A DNA stretch of 15,367 nucleotides from Candidatus Thorarchaeota archaeon (GTDB taxonomy: Archaea > Asgardarchaeota > Thorarchaeia > Thorarchaeales > Thorarchaeaceae): assembly GCA_048882045.1 (NCBI GenBank), contig JBHLRZ010000054.1, forward strand, positions 1 through 15,367, read 5' to 3'. The position numbers were made by a program, and so were the translations under genes. Below the pieces are notes generated by a model. That model made no database searches. It was not told the DNA's origin and was given only the letters and a program-made list of their open reading frames with translations. This document shows, one piece after another, positions 4,909 through 15,367 of the stretch; positions within the stretch are counted from its first letter, which is position 1, and every line of letters begins with the position of its first letter.

Positions 4909-6453
4909 TTGAGGATTGCACGGGTATTATTGATTTTGATGTTCATAGGACTCCTTGTAAATACATCCTTGTCATCTAATCGATACACTAGGCCTCAATT
5001 AGACCAGCGAATCTATTCTTGGTCTGACGAAACATATCCAATAATTATACGAAGCAATGCGGATCTAGCGGCGTTGTCATCTGGAGGAGCTGGCACAGCG
5101 AACGATCCTTACGTCATCGCAGACCTTCAGATTTCTGTCCATGACGAAGAAATGGCTATCAATATCAGAGATACCGACGCTTACTTTATTCTGTTTAATT
5201 GTAGGATTGAGATGGTGAGAGGTTTTTCAGCCATTGTCATGAGCAATGTTTCATATGGTGTCTTTGAGGAGTGCGAGATTATTGGCGCTGGTGTCATCCT
5301 TGATCGCTGCAACAGCTGTGAGATAGTTGATTGCACGATAACTGGGTCGATGTCTGAGGTGGGGATTGAGATTCTTTTCTCAGAGGATGTGAGAATGAAA
5401 GGAAACATAATCAGTAACTCACCAAGCGGCATCAGGGTTATGGGATCAGAAAACATTCGGCTTTCCTCAAATCATATCTATGACAACGAAGTGTTTGGCA
5501 TAGATGTCTATCTCTCAGCAAACACATCGATGTATGATAATGTATTGGAGAACAATGGAGTTTTCCTCTCGTTGTGGTGGGCGGGATACAATGGTCATAT
5601 GATTGAAGGAAAGCAATACATTGACGTACCATACAATTTTGACAATAATTCAGTGAATGGAAAACCACTTGGATTCTTTCATGGGATAACTGATGACACC
5701 ATTGAGGGTGATACCTTCGGACAGATCATTCTTCTAAACTGTTCCAACCTTGAGGTTGTTGGCGGGGATTTTCTAAAATCATCAGTAGGTTTTCAGATGC
5801 ATTTTAGTGAGAACTGCTCAATCAAAGGTGCAAACGTTGCTGATAACGGTGCGTGGGGGATGTATGTCTTCTATTCAAATTTCACAGTGATTGAGAACTG
5901 CAGTGTGCATGATAACAGTTGGAATGGAATCCTTCTGGAGAAGTCACCTTTTACTCAGATTAGCAACAATTCAATCATCAATAATGACGCGACGGGAGTA
6001 TATCTGGCGACTTCTGACAATTGTAGTATTTTGAACAACTCTCTGAGTCATAACTTCAGCGGTGTTGGCATTGGTTCATCTAGTAACTGTACAGTTATTG
6101 GGAATGAACTAGTATATAATTCAGTATATGGGATATTATTGATTGGGGACAGTCACCAAAACTCAATCTATGGAAATGCCATTGGTTGGAATGGAGCAGC
6201 CAACGGACGGGATGAAGCGGGTTATAATTTCTGGGACAATGGTATTGACCAAGGGAATAGTTGGAGTGATTATTCGGGATTTGGGAACTATATCATAGAA
6301 TATTATGGAACCGATCACTATCCTTCATTTCTAGGCAACCCGATTATGAGTCCTGTCACACTGTTAATGATTGGTACAGGTTCCGCAATTATATTCACGA
6401 TTATAATTGGCCTAGTTTGGATGAGAAAACGAGGAAAAAGAGGACAAATATAG
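4909..6453 (+). CDS. NosD-like right-handed parallel beta-helix (CASH/PbH1) surface protein with C-terminal TM anchor
   Basis: Signal peptide; GxGTxNDPYVI motif; repeated NxIxNN..GI.L..S.N turns; NxWDNG...GNxWSDY...DHYP terminal motif; TM helix plus basic tail (MRKRGKRG). TTG start with GGGAG upstream. Confidence 0.88.
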   Translation: MRIARVLLILMFIGLLVNTSLSSNRYTRPQLDQRIYSWSDETYPIIIRSNADLAALSSGGAGTANDPYVIADLQISVHDEEMAINIRDTDAYFILFNCRIEMVRGFSAIVMSNVSYGVFEECEIIGAGVILDRCNSCEIVDCTITGSMSEVGIEILFSEDVRMKGNIISNSPSGIRVMGSENIRLSSNHIYDNEVFGIDVYLSANTSMYDNVLENNGVFLSLWWAGYNGHMIEGKQYIDVPYNFDNNSVNGKPLGFFHGITDDTIEGDTFGQIILLNCSNLEVVGGDFLKSSVGFQMHFSENCSIKGANVADNGAWGMYVFYSNFTVIENCSVHDNSWNGILLEKSPFTQISNNSIINNDATGVYLATSDNCSILNNSLSHNFSGVGIGSSSNCTVIGNELVYNSVYGILLIGDSHQNSIYGNAIGWNGAANGRDEAGYNFWDNGIDQGNSWSDYSGFGNYIIEYYGTDHYPSFLGNPIMSPVTLLMIGTGSAIIFTIIIGLVWMRKRGKRGQI

Positions 6454-6454
6454 C

Positions 6455-7084
6455 TCAACTCTTCAACAAAGTTTTGATACGTCGTACACCCTCGATAGCA
6501 TCAGCACCGTAATCATCAGCACCGAGTTCCTTTGCAAGTTGAATACTCAGAGGTGCGCCACCTGCGATTATCTTCACCTTATCCCGGATTCCAGCCTCTC
6601 TGAGTGCTTTATCAACCGTCGAGATCTCCCTCATTGTCATGGTGAGCAGAGCACTGAGGGCGACGACTTTTGCACCTGATTCTTTCACAGCTCTAACAAT
6701 CTCATCAGCCGGAGTGTCCACTCCAAGGTCAATCACTTCGAATCCAGCAGACAACAGCATAGAAAGAAGTATGTTCTTACCAATATCGTGGTTATCACCA
6801 GCAACAGTAGCAGCAACTATTGGGGCATGATCACCAGATTCGTCAGATTTCAAATGGGGTTTGAGGACCTCGAATGCTGCTTTCATTGTTTCTCCAGCAA
6901 GTACTAGTTCGGAGAGAAAATACTCATCGGTTTCATACCTTCGTCCCACTTCATCCATTCCTGCAGTGAGAGCCTTGAGTAAGTCCTGAGGATCAACACC
7001 TGCATCCAGTTTGCTTTGTACAAGTTCTCCAATATTCTCGTCATCCAGTTCAACAATCATGTTGGCTACATCATCTAGCTCCAC
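6455..7084 (-). CDS. Corrinoid (B12-binding) methyltransferase protein, MtaC/MttC-like
   Basis: B12 cap domain (GMDEVGRRYETDEYFLSELVLAGETMK) plus base-off/His-on motif GDNHDIGKN...DLGVD...ALSALLT...GGAP. Start placed at GTG 7084 because AAGGAGTGAA (7091-7100) precedes it by 6 nt; ATG 7108 is the alternative. The track's 7261 start would overlap the divergent TPR gene. Confidence 0.92.
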   Translation of the reverse strand: MELDDVANMIVELDDENIGELVQSKLDAGVDPQDLLKALTAGMDEVGRRYETDEYFLSELVLAGETMKAAFEVLKPHLKSDESGDHAPIVAATVAGDNHDIGKNILLSMLLSAGFEVIDLGVDTPADEIVRAVKESGAKVVALSALLTMTMREISTVDKALREAGIRDKVKIIAGGAPLSIQLAKELGADDYGADAIEGVRRIKTLLKS

Positions 7085-7180
7085 TAGGTATTCACTCCTT
7101 GACTTCATGCCATGTATTGATAAACAGTGTAATATTCCTTGTTTTATGTCAATTCTGACAGAGATGGAGCACAAACTGAC

Positions 7181-7816
7181 ATGACAGAGGATATTCACGA
7201 AACGCTTCTTGCAATGATTAAGGAAACAGAAGAGGATCCAAGAAATGCTACTGTATGGCATGATCTTGGTAGTGTATTATATGACAAAGGACGAATCCAA
7301 GAAGCAGAAGCTGCATATCGAGAGGCGTTGAACTTGGACCAAACTCTGGCTGGTGCATGGAGAGACCTGGCAGCTGCCCTGTTTGTACAAAATCGGATTG
7401 ATGAGGCGGAAGAGGCCCTGAAGAGTGCACTAGTCCATAATGAGGCGGACTCTGATGTGTGGTATAATCTTGGGTGCGTCTATAATGTGATGGACAGACT
7501 TGAGGAGGCTCTGACTGCTTTTCAGAGAGCCTCAGATTTGAACCCTGAAGACTCTGACACTTGGTGTAACCTTGGTGTCGTCCTTGCCTCAATTGGTAAG
7601 ATGGAAGAGTCAGAACGTGCATTCAAGAAATCAGTTGAGATACGACCAAACAACTTTGTTGGGTGGTTGAATCTAATCAATCATCTTGAGAGACAGGAGA
7701 GGAACAAGGAAGCCGAAGAAGCCCATCGTTCAGCACTGGAATTCATTCCTGACTTTGACACCTTTTTACAAGATCTGCAAGAGTCAATAGATGATGCTCG
7801 TGACCAAGGTTCATAG
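7181..7816 (+). CDS. Tetratricopeptide repeat protein
   Basis: About five 34-aa TPR units (WHDLGSVL...A..AYREALNLD; WYNLGCVY...AFQRASDLNPE; WCNLGVVL...). Start placed at ATG 7181, with GGAG upstream. Confidence 0.9.
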   Translation: MTEDIHETLLAMIKETEEDPRNATVWHDLGSVLYDKGRIQEAEAAYREALNLDQTLAGAWRDLAAALFVQNRIDEAEEALKSALVHNEADSDVWYNLGCVYNVMDRLEEALTAFQRASDLNPEDSDTWCNLGVVLASIGKMEESERAFKKSVEIRPNNFVGWLNLINHLERQERNKEAEEAHRSALEFIPDFDTFLQDLQESIDDARDQGS

Positions 7817-8461: not shown

Positions 8462-8980
8462 ATGAGCCTCGCAGTATGGTGGAGACGTGGTAGCAAACCA
8501 GGTCTCATCCTCATATTCCTAGGAATCGCAGGATTCGTTCAGATTCCTATCATCTGGCATGCACAGGTCTACGTCACAGTACTGAGTGCAGAACTGCAAC
8601 TAGTGGTCTCTTTAGGAGTGATGATAGTTCTTGGTGGTTCATATATACTCATGGCCGAAGCCATGTATCGCTGGGCACATATTGTGTCGAAGAGGAAGAC
8701 TCGGAGACGTCAGAAGGCTCAGGCAAACTGGATCAATAGACTATCTACTTTTGCTAGGTCGACGACTGATATGCCAGCATTTGTTGGTGCAGGTCTATTG
8801 ACATGTGTATTCTTCCTTTTCTATTTCTTCCCATTTGGGATTGCAGATGCAGGAAGTCTTCCGTCATGGATTGCTACCTTTGCCTACCTCGATCCACTGT
8901 TCATCTACATTCTTGGAGTGAACGCAGCAGCAATCGCTACAGCCTTTGTTGCCAGCTATATGAACTATAAAATCAAGTAA
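8462..8980 (+). CDS. Hypothetical integral membrane protein (about 4 TM helices)
   Basis: Four hydrophobic segments with a basic loop KRKTRRRQK; GGTGA SD upstream of the ATG. Confidence 0.7.
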   Translation: MSLAVWWRRGSKPGLILIFLGIAGFVQIPIIWHAQVYVTVLSAELQLVVSLGVMIVLGGSYILMAEAMYRWAHIVSKRKTRRRQKAQANWINRLSTFARSTTDMPAFVGAGLLTCVFFLFYFFPFGIADAGSLPSWIATFAYLDPLFIYILGVNAAAIATAFVASYMNYKIK

Positions 8981-9272
8981 TCCGGGCTCTACAATTCCAA
9001 CAGTATCTATTTCCCTTATCATTGGCCGAACCACATCTCATACATCGGACCTTCTCGGATGAGCCATATTCCGAGTCTGAGAGCCTGTGACGGGTTGCAC
9101 CTACATGGTATGTTCCAGACATTCTGGAGCCAACACCCTTGAGAGATACTGTCGACCGTGGTTTCAATTGATCTATGCCACTTTCTGATGCGGTCGCTAT
9201 AACGGGTTTCCTGCAATTCGGACAGATTCTCATATCAGGTTCAATGGTTCTTAGACAGTTGGGACATCTCAT
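8973..9272 (-). CDS. Double zinc-ribbon protein
   Basis: Four CxxC motifs in two pairs: CPNC-x10-CPNC at the N-terminus and CMRC-x10-CWNC at the C-terminus. Confidence 0.8.
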   Translation of the reverse strand: MRCPNCLRTIEPDMRICPNCRKPVIATASESGIDQLKPRSTVSLKGVGSRMSGTYHVGATRHRLSDSEYGSSEKVRCMRCGSANDKGNRYCWNCRARIT

Positions 9273-9360: not shown

Positions 9361-9437
9361 GCCGCGGTAGATCAGCCAGGGAGATCGCACGGCTGAAGAC
9401 CGTGTTGTCGTGTGTTCAAATCACACCCGCGGCACCA
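9361..9437 (+). tRNA. tRNA-Phe (anticodon GAA), intron-less, CCA encoded
   Basis: Manual cloverleaf: acceptor GCCGCGG/CCGCGGC; D-stem GATC/GATC; anticodon stem CACGG/CCGTG with loop CT-GAA-GA (GAA at 9395-9397); T-stem GTGTG/CACAC with loop TTCAAAT; discriminator A followed by CCA. Confidence 0.97.
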
Positions 9438-9490
9438 CTTTCTAATAGCATCTAATTTTGATATTGTGAATCAGATAAAGTTTCAACGTA

Positions 9491-11653
9491 CTAGGTTTCT
9501 CTCCGTTTCCATGCAATAACTGTGATTACCGATATTCCTCCAACCAATACTGCGCCTGTGATAATCACGGAAAATAAGAAATCTGGATATGGAGTGGTTG
9601 GAGTCGTAATAGGCACATACTCAGGTATCTCTGGAAAAATGTCAATCGAATATTCAGGATTGGGTTTTGTTTGCGAAATAAGCAATAGTCTTGTTCCATT
9701 AGCCACGACATCAATATGAATCTCTAGTATGTTATTCTCAGTTGGGAACTGACCCAATGATGTATTACTGTCAATGGAATGAACCCAGTAATTTCCTTCA
9801 GGAAAACCAAACTGAGAGAGATCTAATGTGTAGTTGAATGAACGAATCGTATTATTGAGGTCAGAGATACCTGCTAGGATTAGTCCATCTCCAACTACAC
9901 CCTGAGTGATCAACATGTTTTCAGTCTCATTTGAGGAGATTGAGTTCGTGATGTTGAGAAAGTCTGCAAATGTCCAGATGAACTCTTTATACAAGTACCA
10001 GAGGTAAGGCTTCTTGTCTGAAGGAGGCGCCCCAGCTTCTCGATAAGACCATTCCGCACCAACATGCAGTACCCAACCTGAGTCTGGTTCTGACTCATTA
10101 TGGTACAAAGTCAATGGCGAGTTTTCAAGAGCTACTAGAGTCGCATCTTCTACCGAATAGAATCCCTCAATGGGGGTATATCCTGTTGCACCAGATGATA
10201 TATTCAACAACTTAGTGCCATGAGTGGGAGCATCGTAGTCTTGTATCTCCAGATCAAGGATGTTCGGTCCTGTAATATTGATAAAAACGTGTCCTGAGAA
10301 TGATTCTTCCTTGCATCCGTATTCGATGTTGAACTTAGAAGTCCTTGGAAGAGGATTTTCAGTGGAATTGATTCCTTCTAAAAATACGAGATTTCCCCCA
10401 TTTGATACAAAACTATTCAACTTGTCCACGGTTTCATCATAATACCAGCCATCTGCAAGTAGCACTACTGAGTAATGGGACATGTCCACATCAGTAGTAG
10501 CAAAGCATCTCTGGTTGACAAGATCATACTCTGTAAACAGTCCCAAATCAGCCATATTTAGCATCGCCACTCCAGTCTGATGTCCGTCTCCAACCACAAG
10601 CACCTCTGGACGAGGTTCAATTGCTGGTAGATTAGACAATTGCCCAGCTAAATTATCGATGTACATCCAAATCCTCTTACCCATTTCATCCTCACGTTGA
10701 TGTCCCCATGCCCAATTGAAACTGTCATTATATTGAGGTGCCCAGTCAAACCAACCTAAAACATCAACTCCTGAAAGATATGAGAGCCAGGTTTCTCTGC
10801 GTATCTGTTCGTAGCTTCCTTCTTTGTAAGAGAGCCCATCACCTGCCTCATTTATGAAATCCCATATTGTGCCCCAGATGTCGAAGTGTAGTGTCTTACC
10901 GGGTAGAGAGGTCTTGTATCTTCTGACACTTTCATACAGAAGTAACGGAGCTTCCTTTGAATAGAAACAGTCTACAGCAAATACGTCGCCATCAATCTCA
11001 TATGGTGCACTAGTCTTATCACTTAATCCCCAAGTTGGGGGCATCAGGATATACTGAACAATCTTTGCATTGGGCGCCCATGATCGGATATAGCTGGCAA
11101 TATAGTTATACACCCAGACACTTCGGTCATTGAGCCATTCATTGTAGGCAAAAGACTCGGTTGTATTTCGTTCATCGTAGGATTTCATCCAGTACCCTGT
11201 ATCAGTATGGTAGGTATCATTGTATTTTGCTATCTCCAGTGAAAGCTCTGCGCTGATGTACTGTTCATCGCTCAACGTCACCCCCCAAACATAGTCCGGA
11301 TTGAATACAGCCAAATTGTAATCAATAGCATCGTTTAGGTATGATTGGACTGTTGAGTTATAGTAGATATCTATTGGATTAGTAATGTTCACTCCCCACC
11401 ATTGTCCCCACCAGTGCACAATGAGTATCGTCTTGACTCCTGCTTCATATAGCATTTGCATATCCAAGTTATCTTGAGGTGTTCCTTGACCGTTGAAGGT
11501 CCAGTATGTGATATTACTATTCATTATTGTTTCAACTATACCGAATCCACCTCCGTGTCTGGTTTCAATTGCCCTTACATTACTCGCACTATAGAGAGGT
11601 ATAAAGAGAAGTAGGAGTGTGAGCATTACTCCTTTGGCCACTTTTGTTGACAA
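9491..11653 (-). CDS. Membrane-anchored extracellular glycoside-hydrolase-like protein (GH42/beta-galactosidase-like architecture)
   Basis: Signal peptide; TIM-barrel-like motifs WGVTLSDEQ and EQIRRETWLSYLSGVDVLGWFDW; trimerisation/GATase-like segment DMSHYSVVLLAD...DKLNSFVSNGGNLVF; beta-rich C-domain; Thr/Pro linker; TM helix plus WKRRET. TTG start with GGGGT upstream. Confidence 0.7.
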   Translation of the reverse strand: MSTKVAKGVMLTLLLLFIPLYSASNVRAIETRHGGGFGIVETIMNSNITYWTFNGQGTPQDNLDMQMLYEAGVKTILIVHWWGQWWGVNITNPIDIYYNSTVQSYLNDAIDYNLAVFNPDYVWGVTLSDEQYISAELSLEIAKYNDTYHTDTGYWMKSYDERNTTESFAYNEWLNDRSVWVYNYIASYIRSWAPNAKIVQYILMPPTWGLSDKTSAPYEIDGDVFAVDCFYSKEAPLLLYESVRRYKTSLPGKTLHFDIWGTIWDFINEAGDGLSYKEGSYEQIRRETWLSYLSGVDVLGWFDWAPQYNDSFNWAWGHQREDEMGKRIWMYIDNLAGQLSNLPAIEPRPEVLVVGDGHQTGVAMLNMADLGLFTEYDLVNQRCFATTDVDMSHYSVVLLADGWYYDETVDKLNSFVSNGGNLVFLEGINSTENPLPRTSKFNIEYGCKEESFSGHVFINITGPNILDLEIQDYDAPTHGTKLLNISSGATGYTPIEGFYSVEDATLVALENSPLTLYHNESEPDSGWVLHVGAEWSYREAGAPPSDKKPYLWYLYKEFIWTFADFLNITNSISSNETENMLITQGVVGDGLILAGISDLNNTIRSFNYTLDLSQFGFPEGNYWVHSIDSNTSLGQFPTENNILEIHIDVVANGTRLLLISQTKPNPEYSIDIFPEIPEYVPITTPTTPYPDFLFSVIITGAVLVGGISVITVIAWKRRET

Positions 11654-11744
11654 TGATTACCCCGTTGTAATAAGGTCAATTGCACAAATAGTCTTTTTTA
11701 GCACTCTATTTGGAGAAGAGTAGATATAACTCCCAGTTTCTACA

Positions 11745-11766
11745 TCAAATCACATCCGAGGCACCA
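11745..11766 (+). repeat. Direct repeat of the tRNA-Phe 3' end (att-like copy 1)
   Basis: TCAAATCACAtCCGaGGCACCA versus tRNA 9416-9437 TCAAATCACACCCGCGGCACCA: 20/22 identical. Confidence 0.85.
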
Positions 11767-11853
11767 TTCCTTCATTTTTATTATTCGTGCTATGAGTGAG
11801 AAGATTCAATACAAAAGGTGAGAAAGTTCAATGCAGTATGAGTTGGGAGAGGA

Positions 11854-12102
11854 TTGATTTTGAAGAATACAGGACAATGTCCCAAATGTGAGAGTATGGA
11901 TATATGGAATAATTCACATCTTCAGAGGAAGAATCCACCATTGAAAAAATGGATACTGGTGCGGTATAGTGGTCTTATAGGCTTAGACCGCAAGTTTGCT
12001 TACAAGGATGAGTATGTCTGCATGAATTGCGGCTACTGTGAAACATACATCGAGGAGCAGGGTCTAGAAACAATCAGAGAATATGGGAATAAGTTTCAGT
12101 GA
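11854..12102 (+). CDS. Small zinc-ribbon protein (DUF2082-like CxxC...CxxCG pattern)
   Basis: CPKC near the N-terminus and YVCMNCGYCETY; purine-rich GGGAGAGGA just upstream; TTG start at 11854 or 11860. Confidence 0.78.
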   Translation: MILKNTGQCPKCESMDIWNNSHLQRKNPPLKKWILVRYSGLIGLDRKFAYKDEYVCMNCGYCETYIEEQGLETIREYGNKFQ

Positions 12103-12124
12103 TCACTTAGCACCTTCTTAGCAG

Positions 12125-12148
12125 GTTCAAATCACACCTGCGGCACCA
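12125..12148 (+). repeat. Direct repeat of the tRNA-Phe 3' end (att-like copy 2)
   Basis: GTTCAAATCACACCtGCGGCACCA versus tRNA 9414-9437 GTTCAAATCACACCCGCGGCACCA: 23/24 identical. Confidence 0.92.
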
Positions 12149-12206
12149 ATCTCTTTCTTTGTAATGGAGAACAGATAATAGAGGGTGAAGATTCTCCTAA
12201 AGAGAG

Positions 12207-13634
12207 TTGGTATTCGTGGAGAGTTCTGAGAAGCTAAGCCGCAAGAATCTCTGGGGTTATGCCTTTGGCGCAATCCCCACAGGATTGCTAGGTTTTGTGT
12301 TCAGCTTCAAGTACATCGAGTTTTTCTTTGATGATCTTGCGCTATTACCCTCTTTCTTTATCTTGGGGCAGATAATTTACATGACTGTCAACTCCCTGAA
12401 TGACCCCCTGTCAGGGCAATTATCAGACAGAACTAACCGTGAACGATGGGGGAGCAGACGTCTTATCTACATCAAATATGGTGGTCCAATCTGGGCACTC
12501 ACGTTTCTACTTGTGTGGTTCCCATGGAGCCTCACAAACCAGGTCATCATCTTCATTCATTATGTTGTGACAATCTGTCTCTTTGACACGATGTACACCT
12601 TGGTCATTCTTCTTTGGCTGGCTTTACTCCCGGAAATGACCATAGATATTGATGAACGAAACAAAGCACAGTTCATTGCGACGATATTAGGGACATTCGT
12701 GACACTTCCAGTTTTCATAATGATTGCCAATATACCCCCAACTACCGAGCTCTTTCGAACAATCATGCTAGTTCTTGCAGTCATCTCGACTGTGTTCATT
12801 TTAATCACAGCCTACATGTGCGAAGAACGACCTGAATTTCAGAGCGACAAAGTATACACACTGAAAGAATCCATTGTTGCTACTTTTAGATCAAAGGCCT
12901 TCCTAATTTATGCTGGATTCTATCTTTGTCAAAACCTACTTGGAAGCCTTGGTTTGAGTTATTTCTTTGTATATCTACTTCTGCTAGAGAGTATCACACC
13001 AGGTCTCGATATCATTCTCCTATTCTTTGTGATTTTCTTCTTTGTTGGATATTTAGGGAACATTATCGCAATGAGATTGAGACCAAAATGGGGAATGAGG
13101 AGAATAATGCTGAGGTTTGGAATAGTGAGGGTCGTGGGATCTCTGGCCCTATTTGGAGTCATACTCATTCCAGGACTTGATTGGTTGATTTGGTATGGCT
13201 TGGTGATTGTCACTCTTGCTTCCGGATATGGTATATTCCATATTCCAATGCAATACCTTGCAATAGATGAGGATGAAGTTCTACATGGTTCTCGAAGGGA
13301 AGGAATGTTCATCGGAGTCATGGCTTTGCTTACAAGGCCGGGAACGAGTCTTGGTCCAATTATAGCCACCTTTGTGCTCACATCATTTGGATATGTTCAA
13401 GGAGGAGAACTTGCTGTTCAGCCAGCCTCGGCACTCCTAGGAATTAAGATGCTGTGGTTGTTGATTCCTGCGATAGTTGCAGCGATAAGTCTGCTATTCA
13501 TCTACTTCTATCCACTCCATGATGAAGCTCTAACAGAGATGCAGAAGAAGCTGTCCAAACTCCACGAGGAGAAGAGAGCGGCTTTTCTAAGCTCGGAGAA
13601 ATCAATAATTGAGTCTGAAGAGAGGGACACCTAA
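12207..13634 (+). CDS. MFS transporter, glycoside-pentoside-hexuronide (MelB-like) cation symporter family
   Basis: About 12 TM helices; NSLNDPLSGQLSDRT...WGSRR, LPEMT.D..ER, and IDEDEV.HG.RREGMF.G motifs typical of GPH symporters. Confidence 0.92.
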   Translation: MVFVESSEKLSRKNLWGYAFGAIPTGLLGFVFSFKYIEFFFDDLALLPSFFILGQIIYMTVNSLNDPLSGQLSDRTNRERWGSRRLIYIKYGGPIWALTFLLVWFPWSLTNQVIIFIHYVVTICLFDTMYTLVILLWLALLPEMTIDIDERNKAQFIATILGTFVTLPVFIMIANIPPTTELFRTIMLVLAVISTVFILITAYMCEERPEFQSDKVYTLKESIVATFRSKAFLIYAGFYLCQNLLGSLGLSYFFVYLLLLESITPGLDIILLFFVIFFFVGYLGNIIAMRLRPKWGMRRIMLRFGIVRVVGSLALFGVILIPGLDWLIWYGLVIVTLASGYGIFHIPMQYLAIDEDEVLHGSRREGMFIGVMALLTRPGTSLGPIIATFVLTSFGYVQGGELAVQPASALLGIKMLWLLIPAIVAAISLLFIYFYPLHDEALTEMQKKLSKLHEEKRAAFLSSEKSIIESEERDT

Positions 13635-13641
13635 CCTCTAG

Positions 13642-14808
13642 TCAGTCAGGAATGTTGATAGGATAAGTACCATACTTCTCTCGGATATCCATGATTGCCT
13701 GCCATCTGTCTAAGGTCACAGAGGGGACTATACTATGACCGCTGCTGAAGAAATATCCTCCTCCAGGTGCAATCTCTTTGATCAACCTCTTACTGTACTC
13801 CTTTATTTCAGAAATATCGCCTGTAGCTAACATAACCGGGCTGATGTTACCAACGAAAGTTAGACTGTCACCATATTTCTCTGCAAGACTGAAGATGTCA
13901 TAGTCAGGATTTGCTGTTGTAGGTTCAATTGGATGAATTGCATCAATACCGCAGTCTACGATGTCATTGAATATCATTGATAGATCACCATCCGAGTGTA
14001 GTAGAATTTTGCAATCCTGTTTATGCGCAGCATCACAGATTCTTTTGAGCCAAGGAAGAACGTATGTGTTGAAATTCCTCGGACTCATGAACAGTCCATT
14101 TTTGAAACCATAATCATCCCAAATTAGGACAAGCTCGGCACCATTTTCTGCAAGTATTTTAACCAATTCTAGTGCTAGATACCCGCGGTCATCAAAGACT
14201 TTCTTTGCTTGTTTGGGTTTGGCCAAGATACGTGAGAAGACCTCGATCCCAAAAGGCTCCCAGGATGGTTCCATCATTCCACCAATAGCGGGGACAGACA
14301 GGATTTCATTATTCATCTGTTCTTGGACCTGTTTACCTGCTCGGAAGGCTGCGAGTCGTCGTTTCTCATGAGGACTTGGTTGTTTCCATTTCTCGTAATC
14401 CTCAAAGCTTTTCAAGTAACCTCCACGATAGCCCAAAATCAGAGTTCCATCGTCGTAATATTCCACATTCATGATTCTTCCAAACTCGTCTATGTAACCT
14501 CCTTCGATGCCTTTACGATAGGTATGTGTAACATAGCTGAGGCCAATGTCAATCTTAAGACGGCGAAGGAGCTCATAGCCATCGACCATACTTTGCGCAA
14601 GCCATTTTTGATTTGAGAATGCCCAGTTTGCAAGACGATCCTTTCCAGGTAGCCGCTTTATGGATTCATAACCATCTTTGATTCCAGCACCTGGATCAAG
14701 ACCATAGTGTTTCATGATCGTGTTGTTTGTGAATGCACTTTCAAATGCCGGAACTCTGTCAGGTTCCTCATGGTTGAGTGCCATCAGAACTCGTGTTGGT
14801 GCGTCCAA
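13642..14808 (-). CDS. Uroporphyrinogen decarboxylase (UroD)/MtaA-CmuA superfamily protein, probably a corrinoid-dependent methyltransferase component
   Basis: RV..AL..EEPDRVP N-terminus, YIDEFG, WDDYG, ILLHSDG, YGD.L..VGNI and PGGGY.FSSGHSI motifs; starts 5 nt after a corrinoid protein gene on the same strand. Confidence 0.85.
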   Translation of the reverse strand: MDAPTRVLMALNHEEPDRVPAFESAFTNNTIMKHYGLDPGAGIKDGYESIKRLPGKDRLANWAFSNQKWLAQSMVDGYELLRRLKIDIGLSYVTHTYRKGIEGGYIDEFGRIMNVEYYDDGTLILGYRGGYLKSFEDYEKWKQPSPHEKRRLAAFRAGKQVQEQMNNEILSVPAIGGMMEPSWEPFGIEVFSRILAKPKQAKKVFDDRGYLALELVKILAENGAELVLIWDDYGFKNGLFMSPRNFNTYVLPWLKRICDAAHKQDCKILLHSDGDLSMIFNDIVDCGIDAIHPIEPTTANPDYDIFSLAEKYGDSLTFVGNISPVMLATGDISEIKEYSKRLIKEIAPGGGYFFSSGHSIVPSVTLDRWQAIMDIREKYGTYPINIPD

Positions 14809-14813
14809 TCGTA

Positions 14814-15367
14814 CTATACCTCCAATAGTGCTCTGATACGTCGTACACCGTCTATTGCGTCTGCTCCAAAGTCATCAGCCCCCATCTTCTTTGCTAATTC
14901 CATACTCAGAGGTGCACCACCAGCAATAATCTTCACATCGTTTCTAAGTCCAGCATCAGTTAGAGCATCACCAATTACACGAATTTCATTGACTGTCATA
15001 GTTAATAGACAGCTCAGAGCAACAATACGAGCCCCACTCTCCTTAACAGCCTCAACAACTTTCTCAGCTGGGCAGTCCATCCCAAGATCAATGACATCAT
15101 ATCCCGCAGAAACCAGCATGGTAATGAGGATGTTCTTCCCGATGTCATGATTGTCACCTTTGACAGTTGCGGCGATTACTTTCTCACGTTCAACCATATC
15201 TTCAGCTTTAAGGTGAGGTTCAAGGACGGCTACAGCTTCCTTCATCGTTTCACCAGCTAGAACAAGCTCAGTCAGAAAATACTCATTCTTCTCATAGAGT
15301 GTACCGACTTCATTCATTCCCTCAGAGAGTGCTTGAAGTACATCTTGGGGGTTTGAACCAGATTCAA
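14814..15367 (-). CDS. Corrinoid (B12-binding) methyltransferase protein, MtaC/MttC-like, 5'-truncated by the window end
   Basis: GDNHDIGKN...DLGMD...ALSCLLT...GGAP. The frame stays open to the window end (ESGSNPQDVLQALSEGMNE) and aligns with the paralog's DAGVDPQDLLKALTAGMDE. Confidence 0.92.
   Translation of the reverse strand, partial: ESGSNPQDVLQALSEGMNEVGTLYEKNEYFLTELVLAGETMKEAVAVLEPHLKAEDMVEREKVIAATVKGDNHDIGKNILITMLVSAGYDVIDLGMDCPAEKVVEAVKESGARIVALSCLLTMTVNEIRVIGDALTDAGLRNDVKIIAGGAPLSMELAKKMGADDFGADAIDGVRRIRALLEV

Follow-up and report, generated by a model that had tools for sequence, protein, structure and literature searches.

How do genes come to stand in a row behind a tRNA gene, with spare copies of the tRNA 3' end between them, when none of them encodes an enzyme that could have brought it there? 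The question is raised by contig JBHLRZ010000054.1 (C54) of a Candidatus Thorarchaeota archaeon, a stretch of 15,367 nucleotides (the window) from a genome of 3.63 Mb that is 93% complete in 93 contigs. The anchor of the array is an intron-less tRNA-Phe(GAA) gene, located by ARAGORN at 9361..9437 on the forward strand, with the T-stem allele GTGTG/CACAC and an encoded CCA. Matching to the tRNA 3' end revealed two displaced tails on the same strand, tail 1 at 11745..11766 (tRNA positions 55-76, 20 of 22 letters) and tail 2 at 12125..12148 (positions 53-76, 23 of 24), each having CCA as its last letters followed by a pyrimidine tract. The tails set a unit spacing of 2329 bp and 382 bp, and each of the two units holds one open reading frame (ORF), neither gene being a recombinase or a replication gene. 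An earlier note on this DNA, made from the sequence alone, had described these repeats and units and had supposed an Asgard origin, and all of this was confirmed: when the bases of the downstream 5.9 kb were shuffled 2000 times, not one shuffle gave a tail match with up to 4 mismatches, and the relatives of the flanking gene carry, almost without exception, the label Ca. Thorarchaeota or unclassified archaea. The locus is a tRNA-anchored stack of gene modules which vary among relatives and are exchanged horizontally.

Unit 1 (9438..11766, forward strand) consists of a pyrimidine tract, one convergent gene with its upstream region and the displaced tail; its sole ORF, at 9491..11653 on the reverse strand, encodes a protein of 720 residues. 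Unit 2 (11767..12148, forward strand) is made up of a pyrimidine tract, an upstream motif of its own, one small gene and the displaced tail, the gene (11854..12102, forward strand) being its sole ORF and encoding an 82-residue zinc-ribbon-like protein with two CxxC motifs. The array had been taken to end at 12148. It extends further, as a major facilitator superfamily (MFS) gene opens a third unit of six genes and about 8.3 kb, without an integrase, which starts at 12149..15367 (forward strand), runs off the window and resumes on contig C68. The window part contains an MFS_2 sugar-type transporter (12207..13634, forward strand), a UroD-fold protein (13642..14808, reverse strand) and a corrinoid (B12-binding) protein cut by the window end (14814..15365, reverse strand), while the GH94-like gene and two further UroD-fold genes sit on C68. 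The same six genes are contiguous in G009 (L243:2-8362), and a contig of the same species continues from the window into the GH94 gene. Three more tRNA-Phe tails lie on C68 ahead of the FTR1 gene, where the six-gene block is followed by a tail, a CopD-like unit (637 bp), a decayed tail, a unit for a 151-residue protein (553 bp), a tail and FTR1. The full order is reconstructed as tRNA, 720-residue unit, 82-residue unit, six-gene block, CopD-like unit, 151-residue unit and FTR1. Most members of the genus have tRNA-Phe followed by the FTR1 iron permease and a HAAS-PadR-dUTPase block, genes which are found here on C68.

The array is not an assembly error, because other assemblies of the same species carry it as well: three metagenome-assembled genomes, which may share one sampling campaign, showed 99.7-99.9% identity across the array, and a contig from a public run covers 10761-12284 with 3 differences from the window. 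The misassembly that had been feared earlier is thereby ruled out. A scan of all tRNAs in the genome revealed the same layout elsewhere, with tails within 10 kb downstream at 9 of 44 tRNA ends and arrays with tails behind Leu, Ala and other tRNAs. Among the 16 tails in total, 13 bound a unit of one ORF. The idea of serially acquired single-gene cassettes thus stood for most units and not for unit 3, with its six genes. The GC content of the units is about 39-44% and is not distinctive.

The variation of the locus was revealed by alignment with relatives, where both empty sites and different cargo were found, as the earlier note had hoped. In G023, G015, G035 and others the tRNA-Phe gene stands directly before the FTR1 or HAAS gene. 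The 720-residue unit is first in the array here, third in G004 and second in GCA_016839345, with different neighbours each time, and its left edge falls at the same base after CCA in three species. The place of the CopD-like unit changes as well: it heads the array in G002, precedes the MFS block in G004 and follows that block here. The identity at fourfold-degenerate sites to G004 was 41-47% for flanking genes, whereas the 720-residue gene reached 66%, the CopD-like gene 86% and the MFS block 68-77%; in the comparison with G002 the values were 31-39% against 85%. Since the unit genes have fewer silent differences than the flanking genes, these data point to exchange of the units between species after the species had split.

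The same comparison bears on the explanation which the earlier note had named as its main alternative, namely that the units are deletion remnants of larger tandem islands and were never mobile as small units. Trimming by deletion did occur: the 82-residue gene stands without a tail, overlapping FTR1, in G008, G014 and G024, and is accompanied by a partner gene for 221-227 residues in G030 and G024. The six genes of unit 3 also suit this explanation, as does the fact that the last 36 nucleotides of unit 1 differ here from those of the same unit in two other species (a source for these 36 nucleotides was searched for and not found), and tycheposon islands are reported to contain such remnants (10.1101/2020.12.28.424599). 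But no large integrase-bearing parent of units 1 or 2 was found in any relative examined, the predominance of one-ORF units across the genome is against decay, and the same small units recur in different species with changed order and low silent divergence. This reshuffling had already weakened the explanation, and we consider it improbable, although its premise of trimming is retained for some units. A joint from 9437 to 12059 in run X7 was considered as an excision product and rejected, since its short side has 28 letters and it stems from a G004-type strain in which the units stand in another order. Two tails at L284:6274 and 7597, in one array, have nearly identical upstream flanks of 30 nucleotides, which suggests tandem duplication of a unit end. 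The six-gene block is common in another genus (8 of 17) and was apparently transferred into three genomes of this genus at tRNA-Phe.

A candidate for the agent of capture was offered by the same site in the relatives. At eight loci of theirs the first unit behind tRNA-Phe encodes a protein of 530-650 residues on the opposite strand, mostly within 10 bp of the CCA; in G012 its gene lies at L033:1602-3542, next to a tRNA-Phe allele with two introns. This LAGLIDADG endonuclease is the only mobility-type gene that recurs at the tRNA-Phe site in relatives. A confident model of its C-terminal 430 residues (predicted local distance difference test, pLDDT, 92.8) matched best to the folds of the TliVMA intein endonuclease (Z 19.1, 186 aligned residues, root-mean-square deviation 2.5), PI-PfuI (Z 18.6), I-Tsp061I (18.1) and I-DmoI (16.0), and shows the two-domain fold of a monomeric LAGLIDADG endonuclease, here a free-standing one; a sequence search of the PDB with the endonuclease profile gave no match. 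The putative catalytic acids, assigned by motif position at the end of each LAGLIDADG helix, are kept throughout, the first being an invariant D (49 of 49) and the second D or E (49 of 49), followed by G in 47 of 49. The family was found in 52 of 85 genomes of the archaeal family, often in several copies, and at two tRNA-Phe loci, L371 and L375, the unit of the endonuclease also contains two or three cargo genes. All 8 endonuclease-flanked tRNA-Phe alleles carry introns in the variable loop (near 48/49) or the T-arm, compared to 20 of 41 others (Fisher p 0.007, a value which is overstated, the genomes being kin). A literature search, whose coverage left out most subscription journals, did not find these arrays, or LAGLIDADG genes linked to tRNAs in Thorarchaeota, described anywhere. 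Longer members of the family, of 670-1240 residues (L176, L177, L181, L183, L189, L200, L201, L203, L204 and L206), form a recurring module, often after a gene for 850-1180 residues and often before one for 190-270 residues. At L174:3628-8653 in G005, a Schlafen/AlbA_2 gene stands between an inverted tRNA tail and the tRNA, and a gene for a 1192-residue endonuclease lies directly behind the tRNA.

The reading favoured here is that a T-arm break is mended with DNA of a relative as the template, whereby the tRNA 3' end is replaced and the old tail displaced, the break probably being made by a transient LAGLIDADG endonuclease. We hold the chances that this is right and that it is wrong to be about equal. 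An intron-less tRNA-Phe gene would suffer a double-strand break in its T-arm, the cutter most likely being a free-standing homing endonuclease which rides in as the first unit or acts from the donor DNA. Host homologous repair would then copy a fresh tRNA 3' end, a terminator tract and the downstream gene or genes from the chromosome of a relative, and the copy would be rejoined to the broken right end via 20-30 nucleotides of tail homology, the old tail and old cargo being pushed outward as a consequence. The endonuclease unit would later be lost by recombination between the tRNA end and the tail, which are direct repeats, and deletions would trim multi-gene units, leaving a nuclease-free and integrase-free array like the present one. 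Within this scheme it is the break, the enzyme and the later loss of the endonuclease unit that we infer; the proposal begins after the first arrival of a gene behind the tRNA.

The junctions favour such repair over one fixed crossover, although not decisively. The tRNA-Phe tails start at positions ranging from 45 to 55, with a mode of 53. The resident gene and the first displaced tail have different complete T-stems in G012, L284, L331 and L339, and therefore the exchange there took place at or before position 49; in the window the resident tRNA-Phe and the tails share one T-stem allele. Hybrid tails, joined in the T-loop, were seen in G016 and L346. A linear donor with two independent junctions would explain the T-arm swaps and the hybrid tails directly, while an integrase acting in the T-loop could do so only with later gene conversion; a single fixed crossover accounts poorly for the spread of starts, the swaps and the hybrids. 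Across tRNAs the starts peak sharply at 53-55, which would be expected both from a T-loop crossover (PMC4383910) and from a nuclease that cuts there. A pattern count of displaced tails across the family gave no usable figure, tails not being separable from intron-bearing tRNAs. Among the tRNA-Phe genes in L031-L068 and L265-L375 there are six or more T-stem alleles, whose pairing is compensatory, and introns of 29-32 nucleotides occur patchily near 48/49 and in the T-loop, which is unusually variable for one tRNA in a family. Several relatives have, 0.18-1.2 kb upstream of a complete tRNA-Phe with an intron, an additional 5' half of the gene that breaks off near position 46-49 or past the T-loop (L047:~5100-6400, L067:5771-6056, L054:4623-4900, L068 and L371). 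These cases may represent a second type of insertion, which brings a whole spare tRNA.

The break-and-repair reading has to be weighed against several observations. The endonuclease family was not found in the genome under study or in G004, and for this reason its link to units 1 and 2 is by association only. Copies within 400 bp of a tRNA number 20 of 53, compared to 37 of 1844 ordinary ORFs of the genome under study, but four of the 20 had prompted the search, and without them the count is 16 of 49. Nor are the tallies independent, given the kinship of the genomes. Of 23 endonuclease genes that abut a tRNA, only 7 are followed by a true displaced 3' tail, 5 of the 7 at tRNA-Phe. Three further points count against it and at the same time support a tyrosine integrase acting in trans, from a passing virus or plasmid, which would insert minimal tail-bearing circles by a T-loop crossover. 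Genome-wide, 13 of 16 tails start at tRNA positions 53-55, as a T-loop integrase would also give; the right junction of unit 1 is identical in two of three species, alongside the exact left edges; and in G001 a broken tyrosine recombinase lies between the inverted tRNA-Phe and a displaced tail, within the array.

The integrase in trans can also draw on the literature, since tyrosine integrases typically leave such a scar, a displaced 3' fragment from a crossover in the T-loop or T-stem, as seen in 1836 of 3919 islands (PMC4383910), and on the presence of some tyrosine recombinase in 26 of 70 family genomes. The search for the enzyme itself gave a different result. The genome under study had no match to PF00589, PF16795, PF00239, PF07508, PF00078, PF01548, PF01867, PF01844 or PF14528, nor to the endonuclease profile, and thus none for recombinases of the tyrosine or serine type, for IS110, Cas1, HNH or LAGLIDADG proteins or for a reverse transcriptase; a profile built from 41 tyrosine recombinases of relatives gave a best E of 0.78. 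These genes are described as not found instead of absent, because of the incompleteness and fragmentation of the genome. Around 35 tyrosine recombinase loci of the family, many of them on short contigs, no tRNA was found within up to 9 kb (0 of 35), and at one locus a tail lies within the recombinase reading frame itself. Of the roughly 2,000 ORFs at tRNA-Phe loci, none but the G001 fragments matched a recombinase. With the whole T-arm swaps and hybrid tails demanding two junctions or later conversion, we regard the integrase in trans as unlikely, though a serious contender. The search for tyrosine recombinases, XerA-like ones included, came back empty for this genome and for 44 of the 70 others in the family. 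At L056:2561-6168 in G001 there is an inversion with one end at the tRNA-Phe tail, the broken recombinase (81% to G034:C52, whose family also includes G015:C120) lying on one side of the tRNA and a LAGLIDADG gene on the other. On L423:2-1027 (G018:C202), a short contig that may be a contaminant, a helix-turn-helix integrase gene holds a tRNA 3' half on the opposite strand within its N-terminal coding region, as in split SSV-type integrases.

The earlier note had compared the array with an integron, served by a recombinase in trans, and had advised a hunt for an orphan tyrosine recombinase; none was found in the genome, nor beside tRNAs in the family apart from the broken copy in G001, and the view was not supported. 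The attC boxes RYYYAAC and GTTRRRY were both lacking on both strands around both junctions, where the repeats are tRNA tails. With neither these boxes nor a reverse transcriptase nor a recombinase of the tyrosine or serine type found, the array is not an integron. Capture through RNA was rejected too, as there is no reverse transcriptase, the CCA is gene-encoded, and the genes lie in both orientations with their upstream motifs kept.

If neither integrase nor endonuclease were at work, ordinary recombination at the conserved tRNA and a tail of 22-30 nucleotides during DNA exchange would have built the array, and the endonuclease would be a passenger. That no mobility enzyme of any tested class was found in the present genome agrees with this, and the variable tail starts and T-arm conversions fit homology-driven repair, leaving the maker of the break unspecified. 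A passenger, however, would be expected deeper in the stack as well, whereas the endonuclease is always first (8 of 8) and always with an intron-bearing allele, with its catalytic residues kept, and it is in the T-arm that the tails of many different tRNAs preferentially begin. We therefore find it quite improbable that no dedicated enzyme took part.

The genes themselves indicate in which form the modules travel. Homologues of the 720-residue gene without tRNA tails exist in other genera, and the 82-residue gene, most of whose close homologues (51-62%) lie at tRNA-Phe loci of five other genomes, has homologues in ordinary tail-free contexts as well. A conserved upstream motif of the 82-residue gene, at 11793..11815 on the forward strand, is its probable promoter and is kept also in copies not behind a tRNA. 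Owing to the tail-free homologues and the retention of this motif in both settings, the modules appear to have been captured as DNA with their own promoters. A sigma-70 promoter scan, with a model unsuited to archaea, stayed at chance level. The 720-residue protein has hydrophobic stretches at its N- and C-terminus and is probably exported and membrane-anchored. A weak match to PF08532 (E 0.015) and Atlas feature matches of 0.91-0.92 to GH42 clusters offer, as a lead only, a GH42-like glycoside hydrolase; a sequence search of the PDB gave no match. The corrinoid protein of unit 3 has a resident paralogue at 6455-7261, and the two (the other at 14814-15365, which came with unit 3) are 72% alike over 155 nucleotides. 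On the 5' side of tRNA-Phe, a double zinc-ribbon gene (8973-9272) is patchy in relatives, being present, absent or accompanied by a peroxiredoxin-like gene, so this side varies too.

Among known systems, the closest layout is that of the mobile ORFs (mORFs) of fungal mitochondria (Allomyces macrogynus atp6; Glomus atp6, atp9, cox2 and nad3), in which a free-standing endonuclease unit without an integrase supplies a replacement 3' end of the target gene and the native end is displaced downstream (PMC3630166). The tRNA-Phe site of relatives with the endonuclease unit has exactly this layout; it differs in having an archaeal tRNA as its target, in the stacking of events and in that cargo without an endonuclease makes up most units, none being found in the window units or the genome. 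With tRNA islands (PMC4383910), archaeal tyrosine-integrase elements (PMC8371274) and tycheposons (10.1101/2020.12.28.424599) the array shares direct 3' fragments at the ends of units and stacking. However, Islander tandems have an integrase in every member (PMC4383910), whereas none was found in the array units or the genome, and the units here are of 0.3-2.6 kb and mostly of one gene; compared to Prochlorococcus tycheposons, a replication or packaging module is lacking along with the integrase (10.1101/2020.12.28.424599). Integrons and clusters of attC sites lacking integron integrases (CALINs), archaeal ones included (PMC9668308), resemble the array in outcome, that is in mostly one-gene, reorderable and horizontally shared modules, but the array has no IntI or attC, its repeats are tRNA tails, its genes, each with an upstream region of its own, point in either direction, and some units have several genes. 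An insertion in the tRNA-Thr gene of Caldiarchaeum subterraneum likewise supplied an intron-bearing tRNA allele and left a tRNA fragment, but it encodes a putative recombinase, leaves a 5' fragment and is a single event (PMC3293823), in contrast to the cargo stack here. SegB, a free-standing phage endonuclease, is also tRNA-associated, and its breaks are proposed to be repaired via microhomology, moving neighbouring genes, also in trans (PMC13096335); it differs in being of the GIY-YIG family, in acting on a phage genome and in giving transient amplification (PMC13096335) instead of stable cassette capture.

A wider proposal may be attached to the break-and-repair reading, namely that gene capture without integrases is genome-wide in Thorarchaeota, where tRNA-specific LAGLIDADG enzymes would break T-arms, repair would stack modules, and introns and recoded T-stems would be resistance alleles. 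It is put forward tentatively, and we would sooner expect it to fail than to hold. On this proposal homing endonucleases would yield an integron-like outcome, and the gain of introns by archaeal tRNA genes would be tied to horizontal gene transfer. What the locus itself shows is where some accessory genes land: in many Thorarchaeota genomes, including this one, no tyrosine recombinase was found, yet accessory genes vary widely, and here some of them move between species as defined modules. Such arrays would escape programs that recognise islands by an integrase, and equally those that recognise integrons by attC. If the endonuclease model is true, these archaea would acquire genes by a route known until now mostly from the mitochondria of fungi and from phages. 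The old question of why archaeal tRNA genes gather introns at odd positions is thereby made testable.

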